A DNA stretch of 51,656 nucleotides, taken from a virus. Taxonomy: Duplodnaviria > Caudoviricetes. Below the pieces are notes generated by a model. It made no database searches. It was not told the origin of the DNA and saw only the letters and a program-made list of their open reading frames with translations. Both the position numbers and the translations under genes were made by a program. The stretch's first letter is position 1; each line of letters begins with the position of its first letter. This document shows, in pieces, positions 5,155-51,656 of this stretch. The DNA is taken from positions 1-51,656 of the IMG/VR virus record IMGVR_UViG_3300048893_000093; one strand, 5' to 3'.

Positions 5155-5180
5155 GCCGCCTTTTTTCTATTTTTACATAA

Positions 5181-14466: not shown

Positions 14467-14753
14467 TGAGGACTGGAACGGTTATAGTTACTGATATTGG
14501 CGGACTTGGAAAAAATATTTTCCATTATGGCGACAAGGTTAAAGAAGGGAATTTTCCGGTTGATAATTTTGACCGATTGGTGAAAGGTGGGTATATTGAG
14601 GAGGATGTGAATGAGACGGTACTAGCAATCACAGAACCAATCGAATCTGAACCAGAACAGACCGAAACTGAACCGGCAAATACAGAGACCGAAACAAAAG
14701 ACCCATTATCAAACATTGATTTTGGAGGTAATAAAAATAAAAAACGGCGTTAA
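14466..14753 (+). CDS. Capsid-associated packaging accessory protein (lambda gpFI position)
   Basis: Coupled to MCP stop; GD.V.E..F......L...G.I domain followed by acidic/Pro tail. Confidence 0.6.
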   Translation: MRTGTVIVTDIGGLGKNIFHYGDKVKEGNFPVDNFDRLVKGGYIEEDVNETVLAITEPIESEPEQTETEPANTETETKDPLSNIDFGGNKNKKRR

Positions 14754-20978: not shown

Positions 20979-21374
20979 CTAATCGTAGGTGAGTTCTTCG
21001 TGGGTTAAAGCGTGCCACAAATTTTGTAATTCATGGACTGATTCGCATTTTACGGAAATTACATAGGTTCCATTTCGGCAAATAGTAAATTCGTTGCTAT
21101 CTGACCACATTTGCATTGTAGTGGGTAATCCCTCTATATCTTCTTTTAAAAACCGGCTCCAAACATTACTATTCCGTTCAAACCCAAATTTAACCAGCCA
21201 ATCTTCGGTGAGAGGGATTCCTGATAAATAACCAATATCAATAGGTTGGGAGCCTTTGAAATCTGGAAAGTCGTGCGCATAAACCGAATCATTATTAATT
21301 GATTCTATTTGCATTATAGAACTCCATCCGATTGCATTGACCAGGTTGCCCCGTCTTAATTCTTCTGCTTTCAT
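20979..21374 (-). CDS. Hypothetical Bacteroidota-phage-type protein
   Basis: ELR.GN.V, IPLTE.WL.KFGF and VHELQNL motifs. Confidence 0.7.
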   Translation of the reverse strand: MKAEELRRGNLVNAIGWSSIMQIESINNDSVYAHDFPDFKGSQPIDIGYLSGIPLTEDWLVKFGFERNSNVWSRFLKEDIEGLPTTMQMWSDSNEFTICRNGTYVISVKCESVHELQNLWHALTHEELTYD

Positions 21375-27419: not shown

Positions 27420-27830
27420 ATGGATCATCGTATCGGAATTATGAAAACAATCCAAGATATAAACAACGAAATTGCATCAATCCAAAACGGCATTGAGCAA
27501 TTGAATGATGCTGCGCCAAACGAGATGCTTCTGTTTTCTGAGATGAAACAAAAATCCATTACAACACGAAATAAAAATAAAATCGCTGATCGAATAGAAT
27601 TTCTTTTGGCAGTTCGGCAAATATTGGAGATCAAACCATCAGAAGACTATTTGAAAGGCGAAATTTCACGGCTCAAAACACTCATTGCAAACTTATCGCA
27701 AATAACCGTTCCGCGCGATTTTTATCCAAAAGATTTTTCTGGAAACGCTATATTTTATTTTAATAAAAAAATGGGTATAACTGAAATGCGACAACAAATA
27801 AGAAATATTGAATTTATACTTGGGATATGA
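27420..27830 (+). CDS. Hypothetical protein
   Basis: 136-aa helical ORF (start may be 27441). Confidence 0.55.
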   Translation: MDHRIGIMKTIQDINNEIASIQNGIEQLNDAAPNEMLLFSEMKQKSITTRNKNKIADRIEFLLAVRQILEIKPSEDYLKGEISRLKTLIANLSQITVPRDFYPKDFSGNAIFYFNKKMGITEMRQQIRNIEFILGI

Positions 27831-28975
27831 CCGACACACAACGAAACATTTGGCTTCTACGAATACAGGATTTTGCAAACATCCTTTTGGATTTGCCGTT
27901 AGATGAAAGAATAGAAATGCTCAACGAGGCGAGGTTAATTTTACATTCAACTTCGCCTTTTAAAGCAGAGCCGGTGGATTATGTGAAGTGGGTATTAGCA
28001 GAAACTGTAACGGCAAATGATTATAATCCTAACAAGGTCGCCCCTCCTGAAATGGAATTATTGGAAATTTCTATTATGAATGATGGCTTTACACAACCAG
28101 TAGTGACATTTCCTAATAATGGGAAAATTGAAGTGGTAGATGGCTTTCATAGAACGCGTGTATGTAAAGAATCTAAAATAGTTAAACAGCGCGTTATCGG
28201 TTATACGCCAACCGTTATAATTCGTAAAGAACAAAGTGATAAGAATGATCGCATCGCTTCAACCATCCGTCACAATCGTGCCCGTGGCAAACATCAAATT
28301 GACGCAATGAGTGAAATTGTTTTGGAATTGAAAAACCGTAATTGGAAAAATGAAAGAATTGCCCGTGAACTTGGAATGGATGAGGAAGAAATATTACGGT
28401 TATGCCAAATAACAGGTTTAGCAGAAATATTCAAAGATGATGACTTTTCAAAATCATGGGAAGCCTCAGATTCGATTGCAAATTACGAGCCATTAACAGA
28501 TGAATTAAACCAGGATGAGGTTGAACATTATCGAACAAGCAATACAAATGATCCTGACCGAATATTCCACACATTTGATAAATGGGAATGTCATAAAGCG
28601 GGATTCTACGCTAGTTCAAGATCAGGATTAACAGCAGATCAATGCGAGAAAATGTATGCTTCATTCCTGGGTGATAATAACCAATTCAGGGAGGGTTTGG
28701 AAGGTGTTCTCCGATCATGGCCCAACTCATGCGAACATTATCTGACTAATAAGGCTATGAACCGAATTGCTTGGTTAGGTCAAGCTGCTGTATGTTATAG
28801 CACTGGAATACCAAGTAAATTTTGTTCTGCTTGGACACTCTTAACAGAGCAACAACAAAACAATGCAAATGAATTGGCGCTAATTTATTTAAACAAATGG
28901 ATGGTATCGCATAACCGCGAACCAATCAGTATGGAAGATGCTTTATCAATTGGAAGACAAGTAAATATTTATTGA
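27827..28975 (+). CDS. ibrB: IbrB-like ParB/Srx-domain protein with extra C-terminal domain
   Basis: ANDYNPN.VAPPEM.LL..SI..DGFTQP, VDGFHR, ASTIRHNRARGKH. Confidence 0.8.
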   Translation: MTDTQRNIWLLRIQDFANILLDLPLDERIEMLNEARLILHSTSPFKAEPVDYVKWVLAETVTANDYNPNKVAPPEMELLEISIMNDGFTQPVVTFPNNGKIEVVDGFHRTRVCKESKIVKQRVIGYTPTVIIRKEQSDKNDRIASTIRHNRARGKHQIDAMSEIVLELKNRNWKNERIARELGMDEEEILRLCQITGLAEIFKDDDFSKSWEASDSIANYEPLTDELNQDEVEHYRTSNTNDPDRIFHTFDKWECHKAGFYASSRSGLTADQCEKMYASFLGDNNQFREGLEGVLRSWPNSCEHYLTNKAMNRIAWLGQAAVCYSTGIPSKFCSAWTLLTEQQQNNANELALIYLNKWMVSHNREPISMEDALSIGRQVNIY

Positions 28976-28976
28976 C

Positions 28977-29675
28977 ATGGCAACTAAACTCTATCATACA
29001 ACAAAATCCGTTCTTACCGCTTCAAAAGAGCGCATATCAGCCACTTTCGATAATTTCCAACGAATTTATATTTCTTTCAGTGGCGGCAAAGATAGTTCCG
29101 TTATGACACATTTAATATTGCAGGAAGCGCGTAAAAGAGGTAGGCAAGTTGGGTTATTGATTATTGATCTTGAGGCGCAATATAATGATACAATCACACA
29201 TATAGAACAAATGGTCGCCATGTACCAGGATATTATCGAATTACATTGGGTGTGTGCCGAATTGTTATTACGAAATGCCGTATCAAATTATCAACCTCGC
29301 TGGATTTGTTGGGATAAAGAAAAACAAGATGTTTGGGTGCGACCAATGCCCTCTCGGTGCGCTGACCTAAACCAGTACGATTTTTACCAACCTAAAATGG
29401 AATTTGAAGAGTTTATGGTATTGTTTGGCGAATGGTATTCACGCGGAATAAATACCGTTGCGTTTATTGGCATACGCGCCGATGAATCACTGCATCGTTA
29501 CCGGGCAATCACTTCACGAAAAGATGGATTAATGTTTAATAATTGGAAATGGTCTACTAAAATAGCCGCGAAATTATTTAATATTTATCCGATTTACGAT
29601 TGGCGCACAGAAGATATTTGGGTGTTTCATGGTAAATTTCGTGAGCTGCCACATAATAAAATTTATGATAAATGA
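28977..29675 (+). CDS. ibrA: IbrA-like PAPS-reductase family protein, N-terminal part
   Basis: SFSGGKDS, GIRADES..R and YPIYDW motifs. Confidence 0.8.
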   Translation: MATKLYHTTKSVLTASKERISATFDNFQRIYISFSGGKDSSVMTHLILQEARKRGRQVGLLIIDLEAQYNDTITHIEQMVAMYQDIIELHWVCAELLLRNAVSNYQPRWICWDKEKQDVWVRPMPSRCADLNQYDFYQPKMEFEEFMVLFGEWYSRGINTVAFIGIRADESLHRYRAITSRKDGLMFNNWKWSTKIAAKLFNIYPIYDWRTEDIWVFHGKFRELPHNKIYDK

Positions 29676-30187
29676 TGATGGCAGGTGTAAAAATATCACA
29701 ACAGCGATTGTGTCAGCCATACGGAGATGACCAGCGCAGAGGATTATGGTTATATCATATATTGGAACCTGAAACATGGTATAAACTCGTATCGCGTGTT
29801 AATGGCGTAAATTCTGGTGCGCTCTATATTCAAGAAACAGGTAATATGACAGGGTATAATAAAATTACTAAACCTAACGGTCATACGTGGCAATCATTTT
29901 GCAATCTACTTTTATCAACAATGCCATGTCGCACCAGTTCGCATTATAAGGAACGGTTTAAAAAATTTATTAAAGGTTGGCAAGATAGGGGTTACCTCAA
30001 AATACCCGACGAAGCGCCGGAAGATTTAGAATCAAAATGTTGGGTACCATCATGGCGAAGATTATGCAAGGTGATTCTACGTAATGACTATTGGTGCAAA
30101 GGGCTTGGACAAGTTCAACCATTTTCAGAGGCTTACGGAAAATTTAAAGACATTAAAAAGAAACGTGAGATTGAAGCTAAATTATAA
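29672..30187 (+). CDS. IbrA-like protein, C-terminal part (DUF3440)
   Basis: QRLCQPYG, EPETW..L..RV.G.N.G and PSWRR.CK..L.NDYW. Confidence 0.75.
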   Translation: MMMAGVKISQQRLCQPYGDDQRRGLWLYHILEPETWYKLVSRVNGVNSGALYIQETGNMTGYNKITKPNGHTWQSFCNLLLSTMPCRTSSHYKERFKKFIKGWQDRGYLKIPDEAPEDLESKCWVPSWRRLCKVILRNDYWCKGLGQVQPFSEAYGKFKDIKKKREIEAKL

Positions 30188-30657
30188 TGACCGACTTCCA
30201 CTCCATAACCGAATCAGTCCGCGAATTTGAACAATCATTCACGCCCTCACAACCGCGAATATTGCGATTTTATAATCGTAAGCGGAAATGCGTTAAAACT
30301 ATAACATCGACTGATTACATCTATTGGTACAATAATCGACATGCATCCTGGCAAACTGAAAATGAATATATTATTGCGATTGAAAATGAATTGAGGCAAA
30401 ATGATGAGCAGAAGCGATATTCATTTATAGAAGTATTTTCGATGATCGGCGAATTTATCCGCCGCCATTATATACGCGGTAACCGATTGGCCCCGATTTC
30501 GTTTGAGGGGCAAATGCAGGATGATCCGTATTTATCGCAACGACTTATTGTCATTATACCGGTTTGCGATTGGCGAAAGGTGATGAGGTGGACGCGACAA
30601 AATCGGTATATTACAATAGAACAATTTATTAACCAATATAAAAACCAAACCTCATGA
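30187..30657 (+). CDS. Hypothetical protein
   Basis: 156-aa ORF coupled to both neighbours. Confidence 0.55.
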   Translation: MTDFHSITESVREFEQSFTPSQPRILRFYNRKRKCVKTITSTDYIYWYNNRHASWQTENEYIIAIENELRQNDEQKRYSFIEVFSMIGEFIRRHYIRGNRLAPISFEGQMQDDPYLSQRLIVIIPVCDWRKVMRWTRQNRYITIEQFINQYKNQTS

Positions 30658-31403
30658 CACAAATTTTCAAAGATTATCAAGAATTTTCTCAAAGAGAAGA
30701 TAAAACAGTTAACGGCGTTTCTCAAAATTTCGCTGATAATAACCCGGATTATAAAAATCAGTTTAATAATGAAGGCTGTTACAATTGCCATGATTGCAGC
30801 GGTTGCATCGGTTGCAGCGATTGCAGCGGTTGCAGCGGTTGCAGCGGTTGCAGCGATTGCATCGGTTGCAGCGGTTGCAGCGGTTGCCGCGGTTGCAGCG
30901 GTTGCAGCGGTTGCAGCGGTTGCAGCGGTTGCCGCGGTTGCAGCGATTGCAGCGGTTGCATCGGTTGCAGCGATTGCAGCGATTGCAGCGGTTGCGGCGG
31001 TTGCAGCGATTGCCGCGATTGCCGCGGTTGCCGCGGTTGCATAGGTTTGTATTATAAAAACGGTTATAATGAAATTAATAAATTAGAAATTCCCATTATC
31101 GAAAACATCCATCAAAAAATATTAGAAGCATGTAAACCTCCTTATGCTTTAAAAATGGATAAATGGCATACATGTGAAACAACTCATTGTCGTGCTGGTT
31201 GGGTAGAAATAATTGCTGGTGAGGCTGGCTCGAAACTCGCTGCGCAAACCTCAACCTTATTCGCCGCTATACAAATTTATAAAAAATCTTCGCCTAATAT
31301 TCGTGTTTTTCCACCGAGATTTTTTGAAAGCGATAAAATAGCAATGGAAGATATAAAGAGATGTGCGGAATTGGAGATTGAAGAAAATAGTAAAATCAAA
31401 TAA
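30654..31403 (+). CDS. Cys-rich (CXX)30 repeat protein with C-terminal [13 protein letters not shown] domain
   Basis: Only frame with unique flanking domains across the repeat. Confidence 0.75.
30777..31046. repeat. 9-bp coding tandem repeat x30 (consensus TGCAGCGGT)
   Basis: Counted directly. Confidence 0.95.
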
Positions 31404-31426
31404 CAACAAATAAAACAATTACAACC

Positions 31427-32215
31427 ATGACCACACAACAATTAACACTCGACCAACTCGGTAACAGAACTACCATCCGCGATAATTCACAACGGGCAGA
31501 TGAAGTTATGCGTATTTCTCTCGACAAAATAGTTATCCGCGACGGCTTCAATGTCCGGCAGCATTACGGCGATATTAAGGGGTTGGCGCAATCCATTTTA
31601 GAAAACGGACAGACACTACCTGGCCGTGTTGATGTATTGGCTGATGGAACATTTGTACTGGCAGACGGGCACCGGCGATATGAGGCGTTAAAACTACTTG
31701 AAACGGAAGGCAATGATTGTTACTTCATGGCAATTGTAAACAAAACCAAAACTACAGAAGAACAACGCATCCTTCAAATGTTTACAACGCAAGACAATAA
31801 GCCGTTAGATGCAATTGAAGTTTGCGAACTGATACAACGCCTAGTTAATATCGGACACACCCCAAAAGCGATTGCCGATAAAATTGGAAAGAGCCGGTCT
31901 TATGTGGATCAAATGCTTTCACTCGCAACTGAATCTCCTCAGATAAAAGAGCATGTAAAAAACGGTACTATAAATGTTTCGACTGTTTTGAAAACAAAAC
32001 GAACAACGCCCAACGCAGAAGAACGCTCATCCCGTCTTGCCGATGCCATAAAAAACAGTAACGGTAAATCTTCTGGCGTTTCCAAAATTGTGCGGGTGGC
32101 GCAAAAAAACGAAGCCAAAACAAATCATGCCAATCGGATCGCAAAGGCCATTATAAAAGATGATAAAATGCAAACGCAGGAACGGCTGGTTGAGATTATA
32201 TTGGAGTTGTTATGA
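31427..32215 (+). CDS. ParB/RepB/Spo0J-family protein with HTH
   Basis: GFNVR, LA.SI..NG, DGHRR..A and IADKIGKSRSYV. Confidence 0.85.
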   Translation: MTTQQLTLDQLGNRTTIRDNSQRADEVMRISLDKIVIRDGFNVRQHYGDIKGLAQSILENGQTLPGRVDVLADGTFVLADGHRRYEALKLLETEGNDCYFMAIVNKTKTTEEQRILQMFTTQDNKPLDAIEVCELIQRLVNIGHTPKAIADKIGKSRSYVDQMLSLATESPQIKEHVKNGTINVSTVLKTKRTTPNAEERSSRLADAIKNSNGKSSGVSKIVRVAQKNEAKTNHANRIAKAIIKDDKMQTQERLVEIILELL

Positions 32216-37387: not shown

Positions 37388-39505
37388 ATGATCGACACGA
37401 TAATATTAGATGAATCAGAAATTTTAGTTAAACAACTAAAAAATATTGTTACTAAAAACATTCCGCAAATTTCCACCATCAAACCAAGCGATTGGGTTGA
37501 ACAAAATATAGTAATGGGTAAGCCTTTTCCTGGGCCGTTTCGATATAAGCGTACCCCTTATACCAGAGAAATTATAGATATACTTTCACCCGACAGTTCA
37601 TGCTGGGGATGTGCCGTGAAGAAAGGCGGCCAGATTGGTTTTTCGGCTGGCGTAATTTATCCCGGTATTTGTTGGATCATAAAAAATAATCCTGGTAATA
37701 CATCACTAAGTGTTGGCGCACCGGAACTAATAAAGAAAGCCACTGATAAATTAGATGCTTGTATAAATTCGGCTGGACTGAGGGATTACATTAAACCGTC
37801 ATCATTAAGGAAAAGAAATAATAAAACAGGCGATACTAATACGCAAAAGGATTTTACCGGCGGTTTCGCAATGATATGGAGTGCAAATAATCATAAAAAT
37901 ATCCGTCAGGTGGATTTGCAAAACCAATTTAATGATGACTATGTTGCGATAAAAAAAGCATCAAAAGAATCTGGAAGTACTGATAAAAAATTAGACCAAC
38001 GGAGCGCAGCTTATAAAGATACTAAGAAGCGGATGGATATTTCAACGCCAGAATTAATTGGCAGTACTATTGATGAGGCATTTGACAAGGGAGATAAGCG
38101 CCGGTATTTAATCCCATGCCCTTGCTGTAATGATCTGATAACAATTGATTGGATCATGCCATCCGTTTGTAGACCTGGTAAAATGGCTGGTATAACATGG
38201 AAAATGAAAGAGGGTGACGGGGGATTAGATAAAGAAAGTGTGGGTTATGTGTGTCCGTTGTGTGATGGTTTTTTTACTGATAAAAATAAACAGGATTGGT
38301 TGAATAAGGGTGAATGGGTGGCATTTGATATTCAGAAAATTGAAGGGTATAGGAGTTATCATATCTCAGCATTATACGCGCCGATTGGAATGGACGGTTG
38401 GGATAAGTATGTGCAGGATTGGATTGATATTCACCCGAAAGGACAGCCGCGTAAAGAAGAGGAATACCAATGGTTTGTCAATGAAGTGTTAGGTGAAAGT
38501 TACGAACCAAAAACAACTGCAATCCAACCCCGCCAGCTTGAAAAAAACATTCAACCTTATGATATTGGTGTTGTGCCCGATGAACTGAGCGTGAAACATG
38601 GTAATGGTCATATCGTTTTAATCACCTGTGCATGTGATTTAGGGGGCCGGTATGTCGGGGATCAATTAAACAGCAAGGAAGATGATGCCCGGCTGGATTG
38701 GGAAATAGTGGCCCATGCAGAAAATGGCACTACATATAGCATTGACCACGGTAGTATCGGCACATTTACCAATGCATACTTGGGTAAAAAAGATGAGGGA
38801 CGTGAATTATGGTCTTATGATCCGAGTAAAACTAATAATGTTTGGAAGGAATTGGATTTAATTTTGGCGCGCACATACGTAGTTGGCAAACATGGCCGGG
38901 GCGCAAACGCCATTACCAATACGATGAAGATACAATTAACCGGTATAGATAGCGGGTTCGCTGATAAATTCGTGTGGAACTATATTGATAGTCGGAGCGG
39001 CAGGTTTAAAATCGTTGGGTTAAAGGGAAATAAAGAATCAACGCCGCGTATTCACGGCGCGAATCAGCGAAACTGGACGTTAGGTAAGAGCCGGGCCAAT
39101 CTGTATATGATCGAAGTGGGCCACCTGAAAGATATAATTGCAAGCCGAATTTCGCTCCGATGGGACGGTTCAAACGCGTCAAGTCAACCAGGCGGGTATA
39201 TGAATTTTCCGCGCCGGGCCGATGGAAAATACGAAAATGAAAATTATTTTGAGCATTTTGAGGCCGAACACCGGGTTATTGATGAGAAAAAAGGAACGTT
39301 CATTTGGAAAAAGAAAAGTCCGAATGTGCAAAATCACGTTTTCGATTTGAACGTTTACAATATGGCCCTGACAGAAATTTTAATGCACCATGTGTTTAAA
39401 GAAATTGGCGTGGTTGAAAAAGATGAACAAACCTGGTGGCGCTTTTCTGAATGGTTGATTAAACAGTGGGGATTGACCTCAGCTTTAAATAGACCTCAGC
39501 GATAA
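37388..39505 (+). CDS. terL: Terminase large subunit, lambda gpA family
   Basis: RTPY.REI, K..QIG.S, ISTP, CPCC...CP.C, IDSG and NH.FD motifs. Confidence 0.92.
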   Translation: MIDTIILDESEILVKQLKNIVTKNIPQISTIKPSDWVEQNIVMGKPFPGPFRYKRTPYTREIIDILSPDSSCWGCAVKKGGQIGFSAGVIYPGICWIIKNNPGNTSLSVGAPELIKKATDKLDACINSAGLRDYIKPSSLRKRNNKTGDTNTQKDFTGGFAMIWSANNHKNIRQVDLQNQFNDDYVAIKKASKESGSTDKKLDQRSAAYKDTKKRMDISTPELIGSTIDEAFDKGDKRRYLIPCPCCNDLITIDWIMPSVCRPGKMAGITWKMKEGDGGLDKESVGYVCPLCDGFFTDKNKQDWLNKGEWVAFDIQKIEGYRSYHISALYAPIGMDGWDKYVQDWIDIHPKGQPRKEEEYQWFVNEVLGESYEPKTTAIQPRQLEKNIQPYDIGVVPDELSVKHGNGHIVLITCACDLGGRYVGDQLNSKEDDARLDWEIVAHAENGTTYSIDHGSIGTFTNAYLGKKDEGRELWSYDPSKTNNVWKELDLILARTYVVGKHGRGANAITNTMKIQLTGIDSGFADKFVWNYIDSRSGRFKIVGLKGNKESTPRIHGANQRNWTLGKSRANLYMIEVGHLKDIIASRISLRWDGSNASSQPGGYMNFPRRADGKYENENYFEHFEAEHRVIDEKKGTFIWKKKSPNVQNHVFDLNVYNMALTEILMHHVFKEIGVVEKDEQTWWRFSEWLIKQWGLTSALNRPQR

Positions 39506-39561
39506 AAATAAATTTGCAAATCCCGTTTTGTTGCCGTATATTTGTTTCGCTTAAAAAGCCC

Positions 39562-39750
39562 CGCACACCAAAGCTAAATTTAACATGAACGCTCCATTAT
39601 ATCTTTCGTCGCCTTCGCTAATCGCTCGGCTTATAGAGGCACTCAGATATAATGGCGTTATGTGTAAATAGCCGCCCCGAATAGCGTAAACGAAAACGTT
39701 TCGCTTATTCTCTGGCCTGATCTCGCTAACGCTCCTGTGTGTAAGGTTAA
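39562..39750 (+). repeat. Structured repeat A2
   Basis: 39573-39604 pairs with 39645-39672; second stem GAATAGCG-TAAACG-AAAA-CGTTT-CGCTTATTC; preceded by TATATTTG at 39537. Confidence 0.8.
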
Positions 39751-39762
39751 CCGTTAGGCTCA

Positions 39763-39963
39763 GTGCGAATGTTTATTTTCAATTCAGATTTTGAATCAGA
39801 CAAAAATTTTCACAAAGAAATTCGTGACAGATCAATTATTTATGATCCGACTACAAATGAAAATTTTGATAAAATAGACGCTGAAATATCTAAATTAAAA
39901 AAAATAGGTATTGAAATAAAATACTCAGCTAAGTTCGATTCCGTTGTCCTTGAGAAACAGTAA
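39763..39963 (+). CDS. Small hypothetical protein (module cargo)
   Basis: 66-aa AT-rich ORF; ATG at 39769 possible. Confidence 0.45.
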   Translation: MRMFIFNSDFESDKNFHKEIRDRSIIYDPTTNENFDKIDAEISKLKKIGIEIKYSAKFDSVVLEKQ

Positions 39964-40116
39964 ATATTCATTTACTGCATTTGGATTACCGGCAGTAGGT
40001 TGTAATTTAAGTGAATACCCTCCATTAACCGTGTTAATTTGGCCCATGACTTTAGTATCATTTTTTAATTTGTTGATAATGTCTAATTGTTCTTGAGTGA
40101 TGAAATAAGTTTTCAT
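39925..40116 (-). CDS. Small hypothetical protein (module cargo)
   Basis: 63-aa ORF with A-rich leader; convergent overlap with previous ORF. Confidence 0.5.
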   Translation of the reverse strand: MKTYFITQEQLDIINKLKNDTKVMGQINTVNGGYSLKLQPTAGNPNAVNEYLLFLKDNGIELS

Positions 40117-40147
40117 TGTTTAAGTTGTTTTTAAATGATGAATTAAT

Positions 40148-40182
40148 GAGGCTCGACATTCTAAGTGTCGGGCTTCTCTTTT
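40148..40182 (+). terminator. Terminator-like hairpin
   Basis: GAGGCTCGACA-loop-TGTCGGGCTTC followed by TCTTTT. Confidence 0.55.
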
Positions 40183-40266
40183 ATAAAGGTATCTAAAATT
40201 TGAACTAACATTAACATCAACTTATTAGTATCGCGCAAACCCAACCCTACGCCACCCACCTCCCAA

Positions 40267-40349
40267 GCTATTTATACATAACGCTCCATTATAATGCGTC
40301 ACTAACAAAACCGTTAGTTTGTATTATAATCGACGTTATATTAAATAGC
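40267..40349 (+). repeat. Hairpin B2 with XerD-like arm
   Basis: GCTATTTATACATAACG...CGTTATATTAAATAGC. Confidence 0.75.
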
Positions 40350-40387
40350 CGCGCGTGGAATTTTTAATTGTGGTAAAATGGAAATGA

Positions 40388-41077
40388 TTAGAGGGCCACC
40401 GGCTTGTTGAAATAATTAACATAAAACTCAAAACTTTCAGGATCGCATATCCGGCGCAGCAATTGCAAGTCTTTATCTGGCCCACCGTGAATATCGTATC
40501 TTTCAAGCCTGGAAGTATGCATATCGCCACCGGTTAACCCTATTCCATGCTTAATACCTAGGCAAATATGCTGTTTTGGGGCAAAATTGACCAATTTTAG
40601 GCGCTTTCCATCAGCATGTTTTGCTATGTCAGATAGGTGTGTATCCAAATATGGCTCGTGATCCGGCGGCCAATTGAAGCTCATATCGGGCCGAATCAAT
40701 GTTGACATGGCGCAAGTTCGGCGCGGATGACCCATTTCAAAGTAAGAAAAGATACGAATATTATAATAAATTGTGTAAGAAGTGGAGAAAAGTTCGGGTT
40801 TTCCAGCATTTTCCCAGGATTTTATCATTGTTTCTAGGTAATTTGGAGCATACCAGTCATCATCCTCCCAGAAAGCAATAACATCTAATCCACGACCGCG
40901 CAAATATTCATAACCGCGCCGGTAACGCTGCGTTATATCTTTGTTGGTGGATTCCGGTGGGTAATCCATGAAAAGAATAATGTCCGGCTGAATTGTTTGC
41001 AATTTTATCAGCCGTTCACATTGTTTTCGGAATAACGGACGGTCGCCGCGTGTTGGGATTAGGATAGCGAGTTTCAA
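40388..41077 (-). CDS. Glycosyltransferase, GT-A / GT2-like
   Basis: ILIPTRGDRP, WEDDDWY; paralogue of 45052-45891. Confidence 0.8.
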   Translation of the reverse strand: MKLAILIPTRGDRPLFRKQCERLIKLQTIQPDIILFMDYPPESTNKDITQRYRRGYEYLRGRGLDVIAFWEDDDWYAPNYLETMIKSWENAGKPELFSTSYTIYYNIRIFSYFEMGHPRRTCAMSTLIRPDMSFNWPPDHEPYLDTHLSDIAKHADGKRLKLVNFAPKQHICLGIKHGIGLTGGDMHTSRLERYDIHGGPDKDLQLLRRICDPESFEFYVNYFNKPVAL

Positions 41078-41162
41078 TTCATTCCAATTTTAAAAACAAA
41101 AACAATATCAATTCCGCGATGAGCGAAAACAAAAGAAGGGTATATGACGGGAATGAAATACA

Positions 41163-41813
41163 TCACTGCTTCGCGGGCACATCCCATTTATCAGGTGAAA
41201 ATTCAGGTGGATTTAATATGCGGGTTCCTCTCCCAGGATGAAAAATAAAATCTGAGAAAGGAACGTTGATGCAAAAAAATCGGTGCGGACTGGTTTCAAG
41301 TTGCGTCATCGTATTAATACATGGCGCGCCGTGATTTATAAAAGCTGGCAATAAAATGTATTTCATTTTATCTATCAGCGCAAAATGTGGATGCAAATAA
41401 CGAATACCGTCTTTGTCAACGTTACCGCCATCATTATTTACCATCACAACTCTGCCAACTCCAAAACATTTATCCCGGTTACCATCCATCAGGATAGCCA
41501 TGTATTCTATTATGCCGTGACGGCGTATAATTACATCGGAATCAATTAAAAGGAAGTAGCGCGTCTTACAAAATCCAATTCCTAAATTCATTCCTGGCCC
41601 ATGCCCGATATTTTGACGATAATTTTTAACGAGCGTGATGTCATCGCGTAAGGTTTGCGTATAAGTAAAACAGTCGTTGGTTTCATCACTACCATCAATG
41701 ATAATTATTTTCAACTTAGGATACTCAAGTCGGATAGATTCAACGCAAGAACGAAGTATATCTGCGGTGTTGTAAGAAACAATTATAGCGGTTATGTTGT
41801 CGGTCATCTCCAA
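41163..41813 (-). CDS. Glycosyltransferase family 2
   Basis: IIVSYN, IIDGS, NIGHG.G.N and LIDSD. Confidence 0.85.
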   Translation of the reverse strand: MEMTDNITAIIVSYNTADILRSCVESIRLEYPKLKIIIIDGSDETNDCFTYTQTLRDDITLVKNYRQNIGHGPGMNLGIGFCKTRYFLLIDSDVIIRRHGIIEYMAILMDGNRDKCFGVGRVVMVNNDGGNVDKDGIRYLHPHFALIDKMKYILLPAFINHGAPCINTMTQLETSPHRFFCINVPFSDFIFHPGRGTRILNPPEFSPDKWDVPAKQ

Positions 41814-42772
41814 TACCTCCCAAAAATACTCAATAAATATTTACCTGTCGCCTCAAAACTGTGCTTTTCTGTTACCCAATTATAAGTATCGGTTTGATGC
41901 CGTGAAATTTCAGCCGGGGATAATTCCAATAGATGCGAAACGTTATCAATGAATCTTTGTTCGGTATTACAAACGAAAAACGGGCAAATTCTTTCAGTCG
42001 GATGCGTTCCTTTGCGCGGCGATCCGTATGCCGATTCGTAAACATCCAAATTTATATTTTGCGTAACCACAATTTTACCAGCCGCCGCCGCTTCAAAAGC
42101 AGTAACACCCCAGCAACCGTATGGTTTACCGTTTAATTCCGGTTTAAATAACTCAATATAAATATCATAATTATTCATCCTGGTAAGTTGTTCTGTGTGA
42201 GAAACACGATCATTTGAGTGCATAAGCGTGAATGGCTGTTTTACCTTTCCCAACATTTCCAGTATTTTTTCAGTTCCTTTCACTTCCGGGTTACTTGGAA
42301 AATGACCAATCGCATAAGGAGCATGAATTTCGTGCCCGAATTTTGGCGTACCGTTCATTTCAAATGGAGCAGCAAAATAATGAATATTTTTTGCGCCAAG
42401 TTGCATAAATTCACACTCATCAGTAAGAGTGAATTTGACGCGCGGATTAAAAACGGCGTTATGTGCTTCCGGTGCGCGCCTGTATGCTGATCCGGTATAT
42501 CCTACGCAAATCGTGCGGTTACCTATCACACTTTCCAATTCATTCAATAGCCAAATTTCACCGTGAGTTAAAATAATGAGTGAATCTGTTGGCGAAGACG
42601 AAATGACGCGGCGCAATCCATCTATTGTAGTGTGTGTACTGGTTTCTGCATACCCAAATGGGTGCGGTGTAATATAATATGATGAAGCATCGGCACCGGC
42701 AGCGCGGAGGGATTTACAAATGTTGAATTCCAAATTGGCCCAATCCGATATGCAGCATAGGATTATTTTCAT
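41804..42772 (-). CDS. Glycosyltransferase, GT-B (GT4-like)
   Basis: H.PSNP..KGT, DIYIE and G...FEAAAAGK.VV. Confidence 0.75.
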   Translation of the reverse strand: MKIILCCISDWANLEFNICKSLRAAGADASSYYITPHPFGYAETSTHTTIDGLRRVISSSPTDSLIILTHGEIWLLNELESVIGNRTICVGYTGSAYRRAPEAHNAVFNPRVKFTLTDECEFMQLGAKNIHYFAAPFEMNGTPKFGHEIHAPYAIGHFPSNPEVKGTEKILEMLGKVKQPFTLMHSNDRVSHTEQLTRMNNYDIYIELFKPELNGKPYGCWGVTAFEAAAAGKIVVTQNINLDVYESAYGSPRKGTHPTERICPFFVCNTEQRFIDNVSHLLELSPAEISRHQTDTYNWVTEKHSFEATGKYLLSIFGRYWR

Positions 42773-43542
42773 AATTCAGTAATTAACGGTTTCGATTTTC
42801 GCTTCGTGATCTCCCCCAGAACCTTATTTTTATATTCCTGCCCCAACCTTCGTTGCGTTCCATTCGGTAAATTTTGATTGTACAAATATATGGGTTCCCG
42901 GATTATTCCAATGCGTTTTTTACCACACATTTCTAAACATGAAAACATAACCTCGCTTTCCGTGGTCGTATCTATCCAATTGCCGTTAATTAAAAAATCA
43001 CAGATTGGTATTTGTCTAAATAATTCTATCCTGAATGTATTTGGTGCGGTGGAACGGTATGGTACGGTGCGATACGCGCGCGTCTCATGTATCTCGTCCG
43101 GGAAATCCAATTCAAAATCCACCGGCAACATTTTACCGTATTGATTAATCCAATTACCATACGTCATCCATTTGCCATTTTGATATTCGCGGCAAATTCT
43201 ATTCAGTGCGCATGGTAAAAGTTCGTCATCCAATCCAACAAATATCACCACATCATTATCCTGACCATAAGTCGAAATAGCAGCATGGCGACAAAAAGCA
43301 GCCCCGTGATTTTGCTTATACGACATGGTTTGAAATAGATGTTTGAACCTTGGATTGTTGTGAATAAAAGTTTCGTAAAATTGATTTATTTCTGAAAGTG
43401 TATTATCGGTGCTGGCATCGTCGATGACAATAATTTTTATTTTACCGTTATCGTAATGCTGGTTTACGATGGATTTTAAGCACGGGAATACGTAGGGCGC
43501 ACAATTGTAGCCGCTCACCACAATTATAAAATTAATCTTCAT
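42769..43542 (-). CDS. Glycosyltransferase family 2
   Basis: GYN, IDDASTD, GLDD, WMTYG. Confidence 0.88.
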   Translation of the reverse strand: MKINFIIVVSGYNCAPYVFPCLKSIVNQHYDNGKIKIIVIDDASTDNTLSEINQFYETFIHNNPRFKHLFQTMSYKQNHGAAFCRHAAISTYGQDNDVVIFVGLDDELLPCALNRICREYQNGKWMTYGNWINQYGKMLPVDFELDFPDEIHETRAYRTVPYRSTAPNTFRIELFRQIPICDFLINGNWIDTTTESEVMFSCLEMCGKKRIGIIREPIYLYNQNLPNGTQRRLGQEYKNKVLGEITKRKSKPLITEL

Positions 43543-43581
43543 ACGGCTTATATGTCATTAAAATTAATATTATGATGAAAA

Positions 43582-44325
43582 TTACAAGCATTCCAACGGT
43601 TTTTTCGGTTCTAATCCCTTCACAAATGCCAACTCCGAATCCCTCTGTTCCTGCGTGAACCTGCGCGTTATTGCTAACGGATTCATATTATTGTATTCGT
43701 AAATAACATCCAGTATCGGCACTATGTGATCTTTTCCAGCCAATTCCATTAAGCAATAAAGCATATTAATGTCGGGATAAATTGTTTTTTGCTTAGGAAA
43801 TAAATCAGCATCGGTTAAGTGATAATATAATTCTTTTCTGAATGATCGCAAATGAATAAATTTCCAATCCTGGTGCCGGGCCGGTTTATCTTCGTATTTA
43901 ATTGTATTCTCATCAAAACAAACCTGGCCCGTATCTTTAATAATGTAATTGCCGTATGTTAGCCAGCAATCGGAGGATTGATAAGCGAGATTAAGTGTTT
44001 CAAGCGCGTTTGGCAATAAGCGGTCGTCGAGGTCGAGCCATACGATAACGTCGAAATTAATAGTGTGATTTATTCTTTTTAGCGCATCGTGTCTGCATTT
44101 CACAATACCTTTATTTCTGAATTCGTATTCGGCACACCATTTTAAATCTTTTGTAGCTCTCAAATATTTTTGAATAACATCCCTGCTATTATCAGAACTT
44201 GCATCATCTATAACGATTAACTCAAAATTCCTATAAGTTTGCGCCTCAATCGAAGTTAAACAATCTTCAACGTATTTTTCGACGTTGTAACCGCTTGCCA
44301 AAATAAGAAATTTTACTTCCACCAT
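43582..44325 (-). CDS. Glycosyltransferase family 2
   Basis: Probable start 44325; GYN.EKY, IDDASSD, LDLDD, WLTYG; paralogue of 42769-43542. Confidence 0.88.
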   Translation of the reverse strand: MVEVKFLILASGYNVEKYVEDCLTSIEAQTYRNFELIVIDDASSDNSRDVIQKYLRATKDLKWCAEYEFRNKGIVKCRHDALKRINHTINFDVIVWLDLDDRLLPNALETLNLAYQSSDCWLTYGNYIIKDTGQVCFDENTIKYEDKPARHQDWKFIHLRSFRKELYYHLTDADLFPKQKTIYPDINMLYCLMELAGKDHIVPILDVIYEYNNMNPLAITRRFTQEQRDSELAFVKGLEPKKPLECL

Positions 44326-44439
44326 AATAAAACTACTATAACCGTTATCCAAAAAACTGCAATTACCGCGCCAATAAATAAGCACCCATTACGCGCGTCT
44401 TTATCCCATTTTATATTATGTTCGTCGAATGGCATTGTA

Positions 44440-45039
44440 CTATTCGGGTTTGCCGCGTGAAACCTTTCCGGTTTCACACATTATTACATCGTGCCAATAT
44501 ACACTTGCGCCACTTTCCCAAACCGCATCAATGAATGCGAAGTCACCGCATCTAGCAACTCCAAACTTATGAATAAATTTTTCATAAATTTCTCGCTTGA
44601 CAACAAAACAGCTACCTCCAATTCTTGCAATAATAGGCTTTTTACCCCAACATAATTCATCAGTAGGATATAAATTCCCTGGTATTTGATTTATTTTGAT
44701 AATCATTCTGAAAAAAATAACGTCTGGGTTATGCTGATCGGCAACCGCCTTTAATTCAGTTGTCATTTCAGGATTTATAATTTTATCATCGTCATCCAAA
44801 AGGAAAACATATTTACCTGTAACTAACGCGCGGGTTTCTTTATCCGAAAAAGATTGGTTCGCTCTGAGTAATCCAATCCCGATAGTATCAGTAATAAAAA
44901 TTTGCTCAATATCTTTATCTGTTAACGAATCAATGGAAAGTAAATTTTCAGCTAATCCCTGCGGGCGTTTATAAACCCTCGTAATTATTGATAGAAAAGG
45001 GTCGGATGAATATGATTTTTTGGTGTAGGTTAAATTCAT
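44440..45039 (-). CDS. Glycosyltransferase, GT-A / GT2-like
   Basis: LSIITR..KRP, GKYVFLLDDDD, GDF.FI. Confidence 0.75.
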   Translation of the reverse strand: MNLTYTKKSYSSDPFLSIITRVYKRPQGLAENLLSIDSLTDKDIEQIFITDTIGIGLLRANQSFSDKETRALVTGKYVFLLDDDDKIINPEMTTELKAVADQHNPDVIFFRMIIKINQIPGNLYPTDELCWGKKPIIARIGGSCFVVKREIYEKFIHKFGVARCGDFAFIDAVWESGASVYWHDVIMCETGKVSRGKPE

Positions 45040-45051
45040 AAATCATCATTT

Positions 45052-45891
45052 TTAAAATCTGCTATTAATTTTTCGACTTGTATGTTTATCACCACTCATT
45101 ACTAACGATTCATAAAACTCCGCACCATCCCCGCAAACTCCGCGCAACCAACTTCCATCTGCATCCACCTTATTATAATGCGCATTATCTTCGTTATGCG
45201 CCCCCCCCGCAACCATTCCGGTATTATGTTTTATTCCGATACAAATATGTTTTGCTGGTATCCAGGTTTTTCCAGGGTATTTCCAAAGTGCAGCGTCTAA
45301 GTAAGCATCATTGTCTTTGGGCCATTTTAAATCCATAATTTTGCGCGTAACCATTGTACTCATTGCGCTGGCCTTGCTTCGATGGGCCAATACCATATAA
45401 CGGCGTGAAAAGATATGATAATAAACAGTTTGACCTATCCCGAAAAGTGATGGTCGACCTATGCGCATCCATTCACCAATCATTAATTCGATATATTCTG
45501 GCGAATACCAATCGTCATCCTCCCAGAAAATAATTACATCGCAACCCAACGCGAATAATCGCTCACATCCAATTCGATAACGGTACGTAACGTCTATATC
45601 TTCGCTTAATGGAAGGTCTGAAATAATTTCAACGTGATCTGGTTGTCTTGTTTGAGCATTAATAAGTGAAAGCGCCTGCTCTAAAAATACCGGCCTGTTC
45701 CCGCGCGTAGGTATCAATACGCCGATTTTAAAATTTAATTTTACAGGTTTTAATCGTTTCAAATGACCGCGATTCGCCAAATCTTCGGCGCGACCTGGCG
45801 TGAAATGAGATTCATTTACAAGATCACCAGTTTTGAAAATTTTATTTCCCGATCCAGAAACGGCACATGATATTACTTTGTATTCTATCAT
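45052..45891 (-). CDS. Glycosyltransferase GT2-like with N-terminal domain homologous to the post-MCP protein
   Basis: VLIPTRGNRP, WEDDDWY; residues 1-47 align with the 14466-14753 protein. Confidence 0.8.
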   Translation of the reverse strand: MIEYKVISCAVSGSGNKIFKTGDLVNESHFTPGRAEDLANRGHLKRLKPVKLNFKIGVLIPTRGNRPVFLEQALSLINAQTRQPDHVEIISDLPLSEDIDVTYRYRIGCERLFALGCDVIIFWEDDDWYSPEYIELMIGEWMRIGRPSLFGIGQTVYYHIFSRRYMVLAHRSKASAMSTMVTRKIMDLKWPKDNDAYLDAALWKYPGKTWIPAKHICIGIKHNTGMVAGGAHNEDNAHYNKVDADGSWLRGVCGDGAEFYESLVMSGDKHTSRKINSRF

Positions 45892-46247
45892 GTCGTAGCA
45901 ATCCCTTTCTTTTCCTTCGCTTCATTCGCCAACTTTTCAAAATGATCGACGTATAATTTCACCCCGCCATCACCATCTTTTTGGTAAATATCAATTAAAT
46001 TAACCTGGTGATTAATGAGTAATGGCTTTTTACCTTTTTCGATTTGTTTTGTATATGACGGGCCAACCCCTTTTATTTCTGACAGTTGAAAATCTTTTGT
46101 TCCGATAAATTTCGCAACCGGTTCAAATCTCAATTTACCAGTTTTATCCACTTGCTGAAACTTCGCCAGCCGCGCACAAATAGCTAAAATATTTTTATAT
46201 GCTTGCGGCGTTAATTTAAAACGATTCGGTTTATTTTTATTCGGCAT
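45888..46247 (-). CDS. Hypothetical basic protein, first gene of GT operon
   Basis: 119-aa ORF; ATG just downstream of TACATTTG box; ATGA overlap with GT. Confidence 0.6.
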   Translation of the reverse strand: MPNKNKPNRFKLTPQAYKNILAICARLAKFQQVDKTGKLRFEPVAKFIGTKDFQLSEIKGVGPSYTKQIEKGKKPLLINHQVNLIDIYQKDGDGGVKLYVDHFEKLANEAKEKKGIATT

Positions 46248-46249
46248 GG

Positions 46250-46320
46250 AACAAATGTAAAAAAAGTTAGCATATTATACTAACTTATAAAAAATATATT
46301 TTCAACCCCCGTAGTTTTAC
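46250..46320. promoter_or_regulatory. Divergent late promoter module with operator AAGTTAGCATATTATACTAACTT (46264-46286)
   Basis: Near copy of 11795-11865. Confidence 0.7.
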
Positions 46321-46338: not shown

Positions 46339-47844
46339 ATGTCGGCAGTTGGATCAAACAATGTAGCGTCAATAGTTGGTTACCAACTCTCTGTTTTACT
46401 TCAAAATTCAACTTCAAATTTACCACAGCGTGTAGCCGTTCTTTGCGAGGCAAACCACGCCAATCAGGATAGTTTAGATGTTTCGGAATGGGAAGCCACA
46501 TCGTTAAAAGCAGTTGGTCTGCGTTATGGTTTTGGTTCACCGGCATATCAGATTGCCAGGATAATGATGCCGATTTTAAACGGTATTCCTTTAGTTTTTT
46601 ATCCACAATCCGAAGCAGCCGGGGCAACTGCAAAAGTTTATGAAATAACTCCCGTTGGTACAGCGACTTCCAGCGCAACCCACACTATAAAAATTGATGG
46701 GCGCGATGGATTGGATGCGCAATTTTACAATATCACAATTAACCAGGGGGATTCATCCGACCAAATAACTGATAAAATTACCGATGCCGTAAATTCAGTA
46801 TTGGGTGCGCCAATGTCGGCCACTGATACAGATTACGTAAATACTTTCACATCAAAATGGAGAGGTGAAACTGCAAACGCTTTAACTGTTAGCGTCGATA
46901 CCAACGGAAACGATGCCGGGATTACATATATCATTAACAGCATCCAAAATGGTGCTGGCGTTCCATCAATAGCCGATGCACTTGCTTTGATGGAACCCAA
47001 ATGGAATACAATCGGCATAAATTCTTACGGAACAAATACAACTATTTGCAGCGCGCTTGAAGCATGGACAGGTATTCCTGATCCGGATGCACCAACTGGC
47101 CGTTATATTGGAATTGTAATGAAACCGATTATCTGGCTTACCGGTTCTGTTGATGAAGATCCGTCATCATTTACTGACCCGCGTAAGGCCCAGGTTGCTA
47201 TATCAATTTCACCTGCTCCGCTTGGTTTGATTTTACCGATGGAAGTAGCAGCAAGCGATGGCGGTACATGGGCAGTTATCGCACAGGATAATCCGGCATT
47301 GGATGTTCTGAATAAGCGCCTTGTTGATATTCCGGCACCTACATTGATCGGCGTAATGTCAAATTACAATGACCGCGATAGAATTGTGAAAAAAGGATGT
47401 TCCACCGTTGATCTGATAAATGGAAATTATGTAATGAAAGACCCTATTACAACTTTCCATCCCGATGGTGACCTTCGCCCAGCATGGAGATGGCGCAGGG
47501 ATTTGATGGTTGATTTCAATGTGAGGTTTCGTTATAAAGTTCTTGAAGATATTTTTGTTGTTGGTAAAATTATTGCCAATGATTCAGATTCAGTTCAAAA
47601 CGGCGAAATAATTAAACCAAAAGACTGGAAGCAAATTTTAATTACTTCTTTCTTTGCAGGGTTAGTTTCGGACGGACTGATTGCTGATTTGGATTTTTCA
47701 GTTGCATCTTTGCAAGTTTCAATTGACCAAAATAATCCAAACCGTTTCAATACATTTTTCAGGTATAAAAAAACAGGCATTGCCAGGATTTCAGCAACAG
47801 AAGCTGAATCAGGCGTTAATTTAGGAACACCGGTAAGTATATAA
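46339..47844 (+). CDS. Tail sheath protein (Mu gpL-like)
   Basis: LPQR.A, YGFGSP, KKGCSTV, D.ITT.HP, NPNR. Confidence 0.9.
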   Translation: MSAVGSNNVASIVGYQLSVLLQNSTSNLPQRVAVLCEANHANQDSLDVSEWEATSLKAVGLRYGFGSPAYQIARIMMPILNGIPLVFYPQSEAAGATAKVYEITPVGTATSSATHTIKIDGRDGLDAQFYNITINQGDSSDQITDKITDAVNSVLGAPMSATDTDYVNTFTSKWRGETANALTVSVDTNGNDAGITYIINSIQNGAGVPSIADALALMEPKWNTIGINSYGTNTTICSALEAWTGIPDPDAPTGRYIGIVMKPIIWLTGSVDEDPSSFTDPRKAQVAISISPAPLGLILPMEVAASDGGTWAVIAQDNPALDVLNKRLVDIPAPTLIGVMSNYNDRDRIVKKGCSTVDLINGNYVMKDPITTFHPDGDLRPAWRWRRDLMVDFNVRFRYKVLEDIFVVGKIIANDSDSVQNGEIIKPKDWKQILITSFFAGLVSDGLIADLDFSVASLQVSIDQNNPNRFNTFFRYKKTGIARISATEAESGVNLGTPVSI

Positions 47845-51517: not shown

Positions 51518-51529
51518 ACCCATGCCATG

Positions 51530-51656
51530 CTAACGCTGCCAACACAAATACAATTATACAATGGGATTCTTTCCAATTTGGAAAATGAATTCGGTGTGCC
51601 AATTAACGACCAAGGTAAAGCAGAGATGCGCGCACAGGCGGCAACGCAAGCCGCTA
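51530..51656. repeat. Terminal direct repeat, copy 2
   Basis: Identical to 1-127. Confidence 0.95.

Follow-up and report, generated by a model that had tools for sequence, protein, structure and literature searches.

IMG/VR virus record IMGVR_UViG_3300048893_000093, analysed here over its entire 51,656 bp (the window), is a complete soil myovirus genome with a direct terminal repeat (DTR) of 127 to 128 bp (positions 1 to 128 and 51529 to 51656; genome class DTR in IMG/VR and 100% complete in CheckV). Between its genes for the terminase large subunit (terL) and the tail sheath lies an operon of eight consecutive open reading frames (ORFs) on the minus strand (40388 to 46247), made up of one small leader gene of another kind and seven glycosyltransferases (GTs). 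We propose that these GTs form a phage-encoded cytoplasmic glycosylation pathway that would decorate a protein of the virion, with the capsid as the likeliest site, a reading that we consider quite possible though short of probable. An initial annotation made from the sequence alone had counted six GT-A enzymes and one GT-B enzyme in this place, and Pfam searches, fold models, paralogy, and profile searches all agree with that count; the seven GTs fall into five families, including two paralogue pairs. In the order of the operon, its genes are the following.

45888 to 46247, minus strand: g119, first gene of the operon, 119 amino acids, not a GT (ORF listing)
45052 to 45891, minus strand: g279, an N-terminal domain of about 47 amino acids known from the head module (45751 to 45891) followed by a predicted GT-A domain with the DxD-type motif EDDD (AlphaFold2 (AF2) and Foldseek)
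44440 to 45039, minus strand: g199, 199 amino acids, probable minimal GT-A with the motif DDDD (profile search against the PDB)
43582 to 44385, minus strand: g267, GT2 (PF00535, 62.6 bits, E 5.7e-17)
42769 to 43542, minus strand: g257, GT2 and paralogue of g267 (PF00535, 50.8 bits, E 2.5e-13)
41804 to 42772, minus strand: g322, predicted GT-B, GT4-like (AF2 and Foldseek)
41163 to 41813, minus strand: g216, GT2 (PF00535, 52 bits, E 1.1e-13; PF13641, E 1.3e-7)
40388 to 41077, minus strand: g229, last gene of the operon, predicted GT-A and paralogue of the g279 catalytic domain that lacks its N-terminal domain (paralogy)

When the genome was searched in six frames, the GT2 family PF00535 (cut-off 23.3 bits) gave seven matches in six ORFs, every one inside the cluster and none elsewhere. 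DxD-type motifs can be read directly from the translations of g216, g257, and g267, whose catalysis is predicted. Under the cut-off of this family are g279 (13.5 bits in the six-frame search and no match in the Pfam scan), g199 (20.3 bits), and g229 (18 bits). The AF2 model of g279 (predicted local distance difference test (pLDDT) 91.2) has 116 Foldseek matches in the PDB at E<=0.001, among them SpsA (2.8e-7), heparosan synthase, WrtF, and STIV A197, which identifies the modelled fold as GT-A. Its paralogue g229 (42% identity, E 1e-54) is by that kinship predicted to be a GT-A enzyme as well, and E124, D126, and D127 of the EDDD motif are invariant across the g279/g229 family (alignment A2). 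For g199, which has 75 homologues, some of them with PF00535, a profile of 29 homologues retrieved only GT-A structures as top matches in the PDB (TarS at 4.8e-4, AvpGT, TarP, and SpsA, in a range up to 0.025), the DDDD motif is invariant in its family (alignment A3), and hhalign relates it to the g279 family with a probability of 43%; it is probably a minimal GT-A. The alignment of g267 with its paralogue g257 (31% identity, E 1e-29) pairs residue 22 of g267 with the first residue of g257, and the true start of g267 is likely the ATG at 44325 (247 amino acids). The modelled fold of g322 (pLDDT 91.8, predicted template-modelling score 0.87) is GT-B and closest to the GT4 enzymes BshA (best match, 7.4e-9), PimA, and MshA, followed by PglA and TarM among 323 Foldseek matches at E<=0.001. 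The protein itself has no Pfam or NCBIfam match (PF00534 and PF13524 included), and PF13524 was found in 3 of the 120 homologues listed out of 196; g322 appears to represent a divergent GT-B family specific to phages. When g322 and g279 were each compared as single sequences with the PDB, nothing meaningful was returned.

All seven GTs appear to be soluble, as initially annotated, since a Kyte-Doolittle scan of the eight proteins detected no membrane segment (highest 19-residue window 1.29; threshold 1.6). Start and stop codons overlap between g119 and g279 (by 4 nt), g257 and g322, and g322 and g216, suggesting translational coupling. The leader protein g119 has no match in Pfam, PHROG, or NCBIfam and no homologue in any relative locus examined; the Atlas places it near CI-repressor/HTH-like clusters (0.91, with low shared-feature counts) and lists a helix-hairpin-helix model at a template-modelling score of 0.30, a lead according to which it may be a small DNA-binding protein.

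The feature of the operon that points to the capsid is the N-terminus of g279, and two genes of the head module are relevant here.

13411 to 14466, plus strand: major capsid protein (MCP), on which g279 may dock and which may be the acceptor (PHROG major head protein, E 2.3e-19)
14466 to 14753, plus strand: stand-alone N-domain protein of 95 amino acids, immediately 3' of the MCP gene (hidden Markov model (HMM) of alignment A4, E 3.6e-23)

The initial annotation had noticed a capsid-region domain on one of the GTs, and residues 1 to 47 of g279 (the N-domain) are indeed homologous to the small protein encoded after the MCP; none of the other GTs has this domain. It matches the N-terminus of 89-amino-acid proteins from the post-MCP region of the distant relatives L005 (E 2e-7) and L007 (7e-6) and also aligns with the 95-amino-acid protein of the window, in which it is followed by a T/E/P-rich tail, and with L003 (alignment A4). 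An HMM built from the eight N-termini of this alignment recognizes the gene directly after the MCP in the window, L182, and L183, the stretch of the capsid module between the MCP and the head-closure/sheath genes in L003, L005, and L007, and a position about 1 kb upstream of the sheath gene on the short contigs L002 and L004. The same model matches g279 and the g279-like GTs of L028 and L044, and the fusion of N-domain and GT is kept in these two loci as well as in homologues P0122 to P0126, P0128, and P0129. Small ORFs just 5' of GT genes in L084, L049, L028, and L044 were searched with the HMM for split N-domains and gave no match.

The N-domain itself matches no Pfam or PHROG model, and we found no published description of it or of its fusion to GTs in open-access text. 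Searched against 1.84 billion representatives, its profile yields 732 proteins at E<=0.001, of which 299 reach E<=1e-10. The best 150 of the 732 (P0240 to P0389) have a median length of 109 amino acids and carry the domain at their N-terminus, followed by an acidic linker and often a C-terminal motif; a few (P0240 to P0242) have two tandem copies, and 9 of these 150 have an HeH/LEM DNA-binding domain at the C-terminal end (Pfam). One of the 150, P0365, joins the N-domain to a TOD1/MUCI70 GT-like domain (30.9 bits; cut-off 21.4), and the Atlas holds a viral cluster of 635-amino-acid GT2+GT1 proteins whose N-terminus aligns with the N-domain, which we treat as a lead. The N-domain thus appears to be an undescribed yet common element of head modules that is fused to at least two unrelated GT families.

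Co-folding of the N-domain (8-row alignment) with the MCP (4-row alignment) gave a score of 0.58 (runs of 0.50, 0.58, and 0.64; best of three controls 0.01), with at least 97% of contacts shared between runs and a partner pLDDT of at least 83, for which the verdict was weak support. Of 80 solved complexes, 58 attained the mark in question, as did 2 of 110 mismatched pairs; only 7 of those 80 complexes and both mismatches did so at 0.60 or lower, so that the support is weak by the calibration of the tool. We take this result as a modest upward nudge for contact between the N-domain and the MCP, and the N-domain could also have a partner other than the MCP.

In the mechanism that we propose, the seven soluble GTs would be made together with the morphogenesis proteins late in infection and would use nucleoside-diphosphate (NDP) sugars of the host for the stepwise synthesis of a hetero-oligosaccharide. 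The capsid-proximal enzyme would be g279, whose N-domain may dock its GT on the MCP or the procapsid, and the remaining GTs would then lengthen the glycan.

The location of the island was compared with related genomes, beginning from its two flanks.

37388 to 39505, plus strand: terL, which borders the island on the left (PHROG terminase large subunit, E 1.3e-102)
46339 to 47844, plus strand: tail sheath gene, right flank of the island (PHROG/Pfam scan, E 1.2e-66)

The PHROG matches of both flanks verify that the GT cluster lies between terL and the sheath gene, where it had initially been placed. Three relatives (L028/G001, with 45% identity in terL and 53% in the sheath and 93% complete; L044; and L012/G002) carry an island of GT and tailoring genes in the same slot and share the gene order of the window, i.e., terL, island, tail, and head, with the MCP gene about 18 to 19 kb downstream. 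All island genes of these relatives are on the strand of terL and sheath, and the cargo of the window is inverted relative to them. In the more distant L003, L005, and L007 (about 45% sheath identity), terL and sheath are separated by the head module, and this interval has no GT genes. The island of L028 encodes a g279-like di-domain GT (471 amino acids), a PIG-L de-N-acetylase, g322-like and g216-like proteins, a hexapeptide acyltransferase, a GT2, and a g229-like protein; that of L012 encodes a g279-like protein, a Glyco_trans_1_2 protein, a GT47/RXYLT1-like protein, an FkbM methyltransferase, a radical SAM protein, and weak GT1 and GT2 matches. Tailoring enzymes beyond the set of the window are located at 5024 to 5617 and 8573 to 9127 in L028 and at 8284 to 10044 in L012. 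Conservation of the cluster, which the initial annotation had proposed as a check, therefore applies to the slot but, in these relatives, not to the content: the islands of L028, L044, and L012 differ in their genes at the same position, suggesting that the slot is conserved and its cargo turns over. A protein of 131 amino acids from the early region of the window (20979 to 21374, minus strand) has homologues with 31% to 33% identity in L028 (4647 to 5027) and L044 (8927 to 9322) that are encoded inside the GT island, directly 3' of the g279-like GT.

Among 50,697 phage records we found no near-identical DNA of the cluster and no tblastn match of g279, and a metagenome scan with g279 gave 68 loci, in none of which a segment longer than 100 residues exceeded 50% identity. 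Closer relatives of the GTs are present on Logan contigs of 41 to 53 kb (g279-like 58%, g199-like 69%, and g322-like 50%).

A broader view came from 141 IMG/VR stretches that matched the g322 pattern, of which 125 code for a relative; 80 loci were retained, and 79 of these have a g322-like ORF. Three neighbourhoods were annotated with PHROG and the annotation was propagated by BLAST over these 79 loci, many of which are short contigs. L084 encodes, one after another, a tape measure, the GT cluster (g279-, g199-, g322-, and g216-like), a head protease, and a capsid-like protein; in L088, the order is terL, a 69-amino-acid gene, the g322-like gene, a 176-amino-acid gene, and a GT of 412 amino acids; and in L034, a tail protein is encoded two genes 5' of the GT. 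Within 3 kb of the g322-like gene, the 79 loci have the 412-amino-acid GT in 43 cases, an L088-type terL in 18, an L084-type protease in 5, an L034-type tail protein in 4, and an L084-type tape-measure protein in 3, and a terL of the type seen in the window is near the g322-like gene in 2 loci. Neighbouring ORFs within 5 kb are on the strand of the GT in 825 of 882 cases. GT homologues thus lie in morphogenesis modules on several phage backbones.

The three islands and the N-domain family also bear on a different function, i.e., that g279 is a packaged enzyme, brought into or onto the head by its N-domain, or that the GTs target a soluble glycoconjugate, host proteins, or defence molecules instead of the virion. 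Because 9 of the best 150 N-domain proteins end in HeH/LEM, the family may have its role in packaging or in the interior of the head rather than as surface decoration, which tells against our proposal. The N-domain is, however, found on one of the seven GTs only, and its predicted contact with the MCP is equally compatible with glycosylation of the capsid surface. GT4 enzymes are paired with PIG-L proteins in the small-molecule pathways for bacillithiol and mycothiol, and a pathway of that kind would fit the PIG-L de-N-acetylase that adjoins a GT4-like gene in L028, the hexapeptide acyltransferase added in relatives, and the proximity of g322 to BshA and MshA; yet such pathways in multi-GT versions within morphogenesis modules are without known precedent. 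That no acceptor motif was seen in the structural proteins would likewise suit another acceptor. Altogether, we regard this group of explanations as quite unlikely.

Which genes accompany the GTs was addressed by six-frame searches of the complete genome for individual families, with control genomes in which the searches gave signals. These searches uphold the initial impression that genes for sugar-nucleotide synthesis, flippases, polymerases, and base hydroxylation are missing. There were no matches to the sugar-nucleotide families PF00483 (NTP_transferase) and PF01370 (Epimerase), to PF01943 (Wzx flippase) or PF04932 (Wzy_C), to the priming transferase family PF02397 (Bac_transf; WecA-type PF00953 was outside this search), or to tyrosine integrases and resolvases. 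In the main rival to virion glycosylation, remodelling of the host envelope, the GTs would work from the cytoplasmic side, with undecaprenyl-linked intermediates of O-antigen or capsule or teichoic-like polymers of the host as substrates, and would borrow its priming enzyme, flippase, and polymerase; the altered surface would block superinfection or the sticking of progeny to debris. Peripheral GTs work without a membrane segment, the closest named GT2 families and structures (TuaG, PglI, EpsE, WcaA, HpsE, TarS, TarP, SpsA, and heparosan synthase) would suit this role, and a tailspike-like protein encoded at 15848 to 17353 suggests a polysaccharide receptor. Passages of a cyanophage paper (PMC12801897) and a Cellulophaga phage paper (PMC11946311) ascribe comparable phage GTs to just such host-surface modification, or to DNA modification, without tests. 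But with integrase and resolvase absent there would be no lysogenic phase, which is when seroconversion usually brings a benefit, seven GTs far exceed the known seroconversion modules, GtrA- and GtrC-like membrane proteins are absent, the island lies within the morphogenesis region on several backbones, and a capsid-module domain fused to a GT would have no role. We therefore consider envelope remodelling unlikely.

The same searches speak to hypermodification of DNA, in which the GTs would glycosylate modified bases of the phage as in T-even phages and diverse DNA-glycan systems. This is a common role of phage GTs according to a passage of PMC12619734 that cites Pyle 2024, and a D12 adenine methyltransferase (10721 to 11413) indicates that this genome does modify its DNA. 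However, the thymidylate-synthase-like hydroxymethylase family PF00303 (over its cut-off in 10 of 14 control genomes) has no match in the genome, nor have TET/JBP (PF12851) and T4 glucosyltransferase (PF09198), for which the controls gave signals only below the cut-offs. With the island in the morphogenesis region and away from genes of nucleotide metabolism, glycosylation of DNA seems very improbable.

A further claim of the initial annotation was that the GT operon and the head and tail operons are all under one promoter module. A module of 70 nt does occur in two copies with 80% identity (repeat family D3).

11796 to 11865: first copy, 5' of the protease/MCP operon on the plus strand; a minus-strand gene of 65 amino acids diverges from it
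46251 to 46320: second copy, with palindrome AAGTTAGCATATTATACTAACTT at 46264 to 46286, in the 91-bp spacer between g119 (minus strand) and the sheath gene (plus strand)

Its core is the perfect palindrome AAGTTAG-N9-CTAACTT, which has these two sites only in the genome (mean of 0.11 in 100 shuffles) and is absent from relatives (3 of 183 loci matched, all of them sub-loci of the window itself). A minus-strand gene diverges from the left edge of both copies, and both have on the minus strand a TAnnTTTG box, which we take to be the Bacteroidota -7 promoter consensus, 12 nt (ATG of g119) and 24 nt before the start codons. The module would fit a bidirectional, commonly regulated promoter region and in itself says nothing about timing. 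The repeat and its palindrome are in line with a promoter-like element common to the head and tail operons; that it also drives the GT genes is what we infer, because the GT genes lead away from the second copy on the opposite strand.

Several observations weigh against glycosylation of the virion. The GT genes share one strand, as initially annotated, but run opposite to the late genes that flank them in this genome, and gaps of 85 nt before g229 and of 54 to 114 nt before g267 could hold internal promoters. Scans for sigma-70-type promoters (32 sites; 26.7+/-5.6 in shuffled sequence) and terminator-like elements (9 sites; 6.8+/-2.6 in shuffles) were at background. No convincing Ser/Thr-rich acceptor tails were found in the structural proteins, with a maximum of 8 to 10 Ser/Thr per 30 amino acids in MCP, sheath, and tube. 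The NCBIfam and structural neighbours of the GT2 genes include TuaG, PglI, EpsE, WcaA, and TarS, which act on lipid- or polymer-linked acceptors, and soluble GT2 and GT4 enzymes working on lipid-linked intermediates of the host would look identical in sequence. A GT of mycobacteriophage Che8 (Q855A2; E 1.2e-6) ranks only 20th among 171 viral Foldseek matches at E<=0.001, which is generic GT-A similarity.

On balance, we nevertheless favour the idea of the initial annotation that these enzymes build an oligosaccharide on the virion. It is made somewhat likelier by the conserved slot, in which the GT genes of relatives are co-directional with late genes, by the fusion of the N-domain to two unrelated GT families, and by the weakly supported co-fold of N-domain and MCP; set against this are sequences that fit enzymes of host glycans too and an acceptor that is putative. 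De novo synthesis of a glycan on a phage-specific acceptor is favoured over a mere tweak of a host polymer because the GTs are numerous and diverse, because the islands turn over in content, including enzymes of methyl, acyl, and de-N-acetyl transfer, because they are placed in morphogenesis modules on several backbones, and because lysogeny genes are absent from the genome of the window.

The remaining genome was assigned by PHROG and Pfam scans of its ORFs.

36688: terS-like gene (PHROG/Pfam)
3' of the sheath gene: tube-like gene
48868: tape-measure-like gene, after the tube-like gene
across the terminal repeat to about 8294: baseplate and fibre genes
8919: portal
10721 to 11413, minus strand: D12-class adenine methyltransferase, within the head module (Pfam/PHROG)
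11871: protease
14835: head closure
15848 to 17353: tailspike-like beta-helix protein (PHROG tail spike, 7.4e-7)
17637: endolysin
about 18 to 36 kb: early/replication block

The ORF of 501 amino acids at 15848 to 17353 was considered as a second, duplicated sheath gene and rejected, since it shows no sheath similarity and is tailspike-like instead. In the window, G001, and G002, the head module (portal to head closure) follows the tail fibres after terL, island, and tail, whereas the distant relatives L003, L005, and L007 have the order terL, head, and tail. Like the D12 methyltransferase gene, the 65-amino-acid gene at 11583 to 11780 (minus strand) lies inside the head module, and both diverge from the first copy of the palindromic module. 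The nearest isolate relatives of TerL are Flavobacterium phages (35.7% identity) and some g322 homologues come from metagenome-assembled genomes of Bacteroidota or Flavobacteria, suggesting that the host probably belongs to the Bacteroidota; the phage DNA occurs in two soil-metagenome sequencing runs, a possible source, and the search of sequencing runs returned none of RNA. The contigs of the relatives are from freshwater and soil.

The interval of approximately 880 bp that separates terL from the GT operon end (39506 to 40387) contains only two small ORFs, a strong hairpin of 13 pairs (40148 to 40176), and a 47-nt repeat (40322 to 40368) that is 74% identical to 4344 to 4390; tRNA and Rfam scans of the whole window, including this interval, gave no match. 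Among 20 early or unassigned proteins scanned with Pfam and PHROG, the only ones recognized were a helicase, an exonuclease, ParB-like proteins, phosphoadenosine phosphosulfate (PAPS) reductase/DUF3440, a DUF5906 protein, VRR-NUC, endonuclease VII, and the D12 methyltransferase, a further point against hypermodification of DNA. A group at 27827 to 32215 comprises genes for a ParB-like protein (27827 to 28975), PAPS reductase (28977 to 29675), DUF3440 (29672 to 30187), and a ParB-HTH protein (31427 to 32215) and presumably is similar to the IbrA/IbrB pair, with reductase and DUF3440 encoded by separate ORFs in this genome. The early-region protein encoded at 30654 to 31403 has a weak PHROG match to a collagen-like minor tail protein (E 1.2e-4), and within its ORF, at 30731 to 31090, a 9-nt tandem repeat (3-amino-acid repeat) is present in about 27 overlapping register copies. 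A protein of 174 amino acids 3' of the endolysin gene (18741 to 19265) has a Thr-rich stretch with 14 Ser/Thr in 30 amino acids and no family match.

To our knowledge, phage-encoded virion glycosylation is documented so far only in a few actinobacteriophages. If our reading is correct, its known range would come to include a widespread environmental lineage, in which the pathway has seven steps and comes with a targeting domain of its own. Phage particles might then commonly bear variable glycan coats, with consequences for particle stability, for adsorption to soil, mucus, or extracellular polymeric substances, for how hosts and grazers recognize the particles, and for how phage surfaces can be engineered. 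More broadly, and as a tentative idea that we consider less likely than not, the putative capsid-docking domain of about 47 amino acids that heads a common post-MCP protein could have been fused repeatedly to unrelated GT families (the g279 family, TOD1/MUCI70-like proteins, and possibly GT2+GT1 proteins) as a general way to aim glycosylation at the capsid, and terL-proximal GT islands with fast-changing enzymes could give environmental phages outside the actinobacteriophages a variable glycan coat. The N-domain/GT fusion is an expressible and testable handle for these ideas in the form of a 47-amino-acid tag and the MCP.

Compared to known systems, the operon shares with DNA glycosylation in T-even phages the use of soluble phage GT-A and GT-B enzymes, yet the family searches gave no match here to hydroxymethylase, TET, or T4 glucosyltransferase and the GT genes are in the morphogenesis region. 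It shares with GtrABC seroconversion modules the GT2 catalytic domain, and g257 weakly matches the GtrB-like family PHROG 841 (E 6.2e-5), in its N-terminal GT2 domain alone; unlike these modules, it comes without a GtrA flippase, membrane GtrC, C-terminal GtrB anchor, or integrase and has seven GTs instead of one. The families searched for the priming, flippase, polymerase, and NDP-sugar genes of Wzx/Wzy polysaccharide clusters had no match in the genome. For the N-domain protein, an analogue may be gpFI of phage lambda, which is a packaging accessory protein. Both involve a small gene directly after the MCP gene, and the N-domain protein is similarly bipartite with a flexible linker and one end that is weakly predicted to touch the MCP; the other end in its family is HeH in 9 of 150 cases, no sequence or family match to gpFI-like proteins was found, and an Atlas lead from the N-domain family to PF14000 (26% of members, score 0.79) is below the bar of that tool.

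The closest functional parallel is found in mycobacteriophages, whose own GTs attach sugars to subunits of the capsid and the tail tube according to passages of PMC12363180 and PMC12619734 that cite Freeman 2023. Like the systems of Che8, Corndog, and Myrna, the operon described here encodes soluble phage GTs with a GT-A fold and lacks flippase and lipid-carrier genes. Its GT genes are adjacent to structural genes, on the opposite strand, and would be expressed late. In contrast to these phages, it belongs to a soil myovirus, probably of Bacteroidota, that has seven GTs of five families including GT-B, one of them with a putative head-module docking domain, and apparently no specific sequence kinship to the GTs of Che8 or Corndog; the glycans proposed here are a prediction from the genes. 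In chloroviruses and giant viruses, cytoplasmic GTs of the virus build a complex glycan on the MCP independently of the host machinery. These viruses have eukaryotic hosts, and giant viruses encode sugar-nucleotide synthesis that is absent here, but their GT2 proteins take ranks 3 to 7, 9, and 10 among the viral Foldseek matches. Capsid glycosylation of giant viruses, the subject of PMC9614988, is a second precedent for the pathway that we propose.

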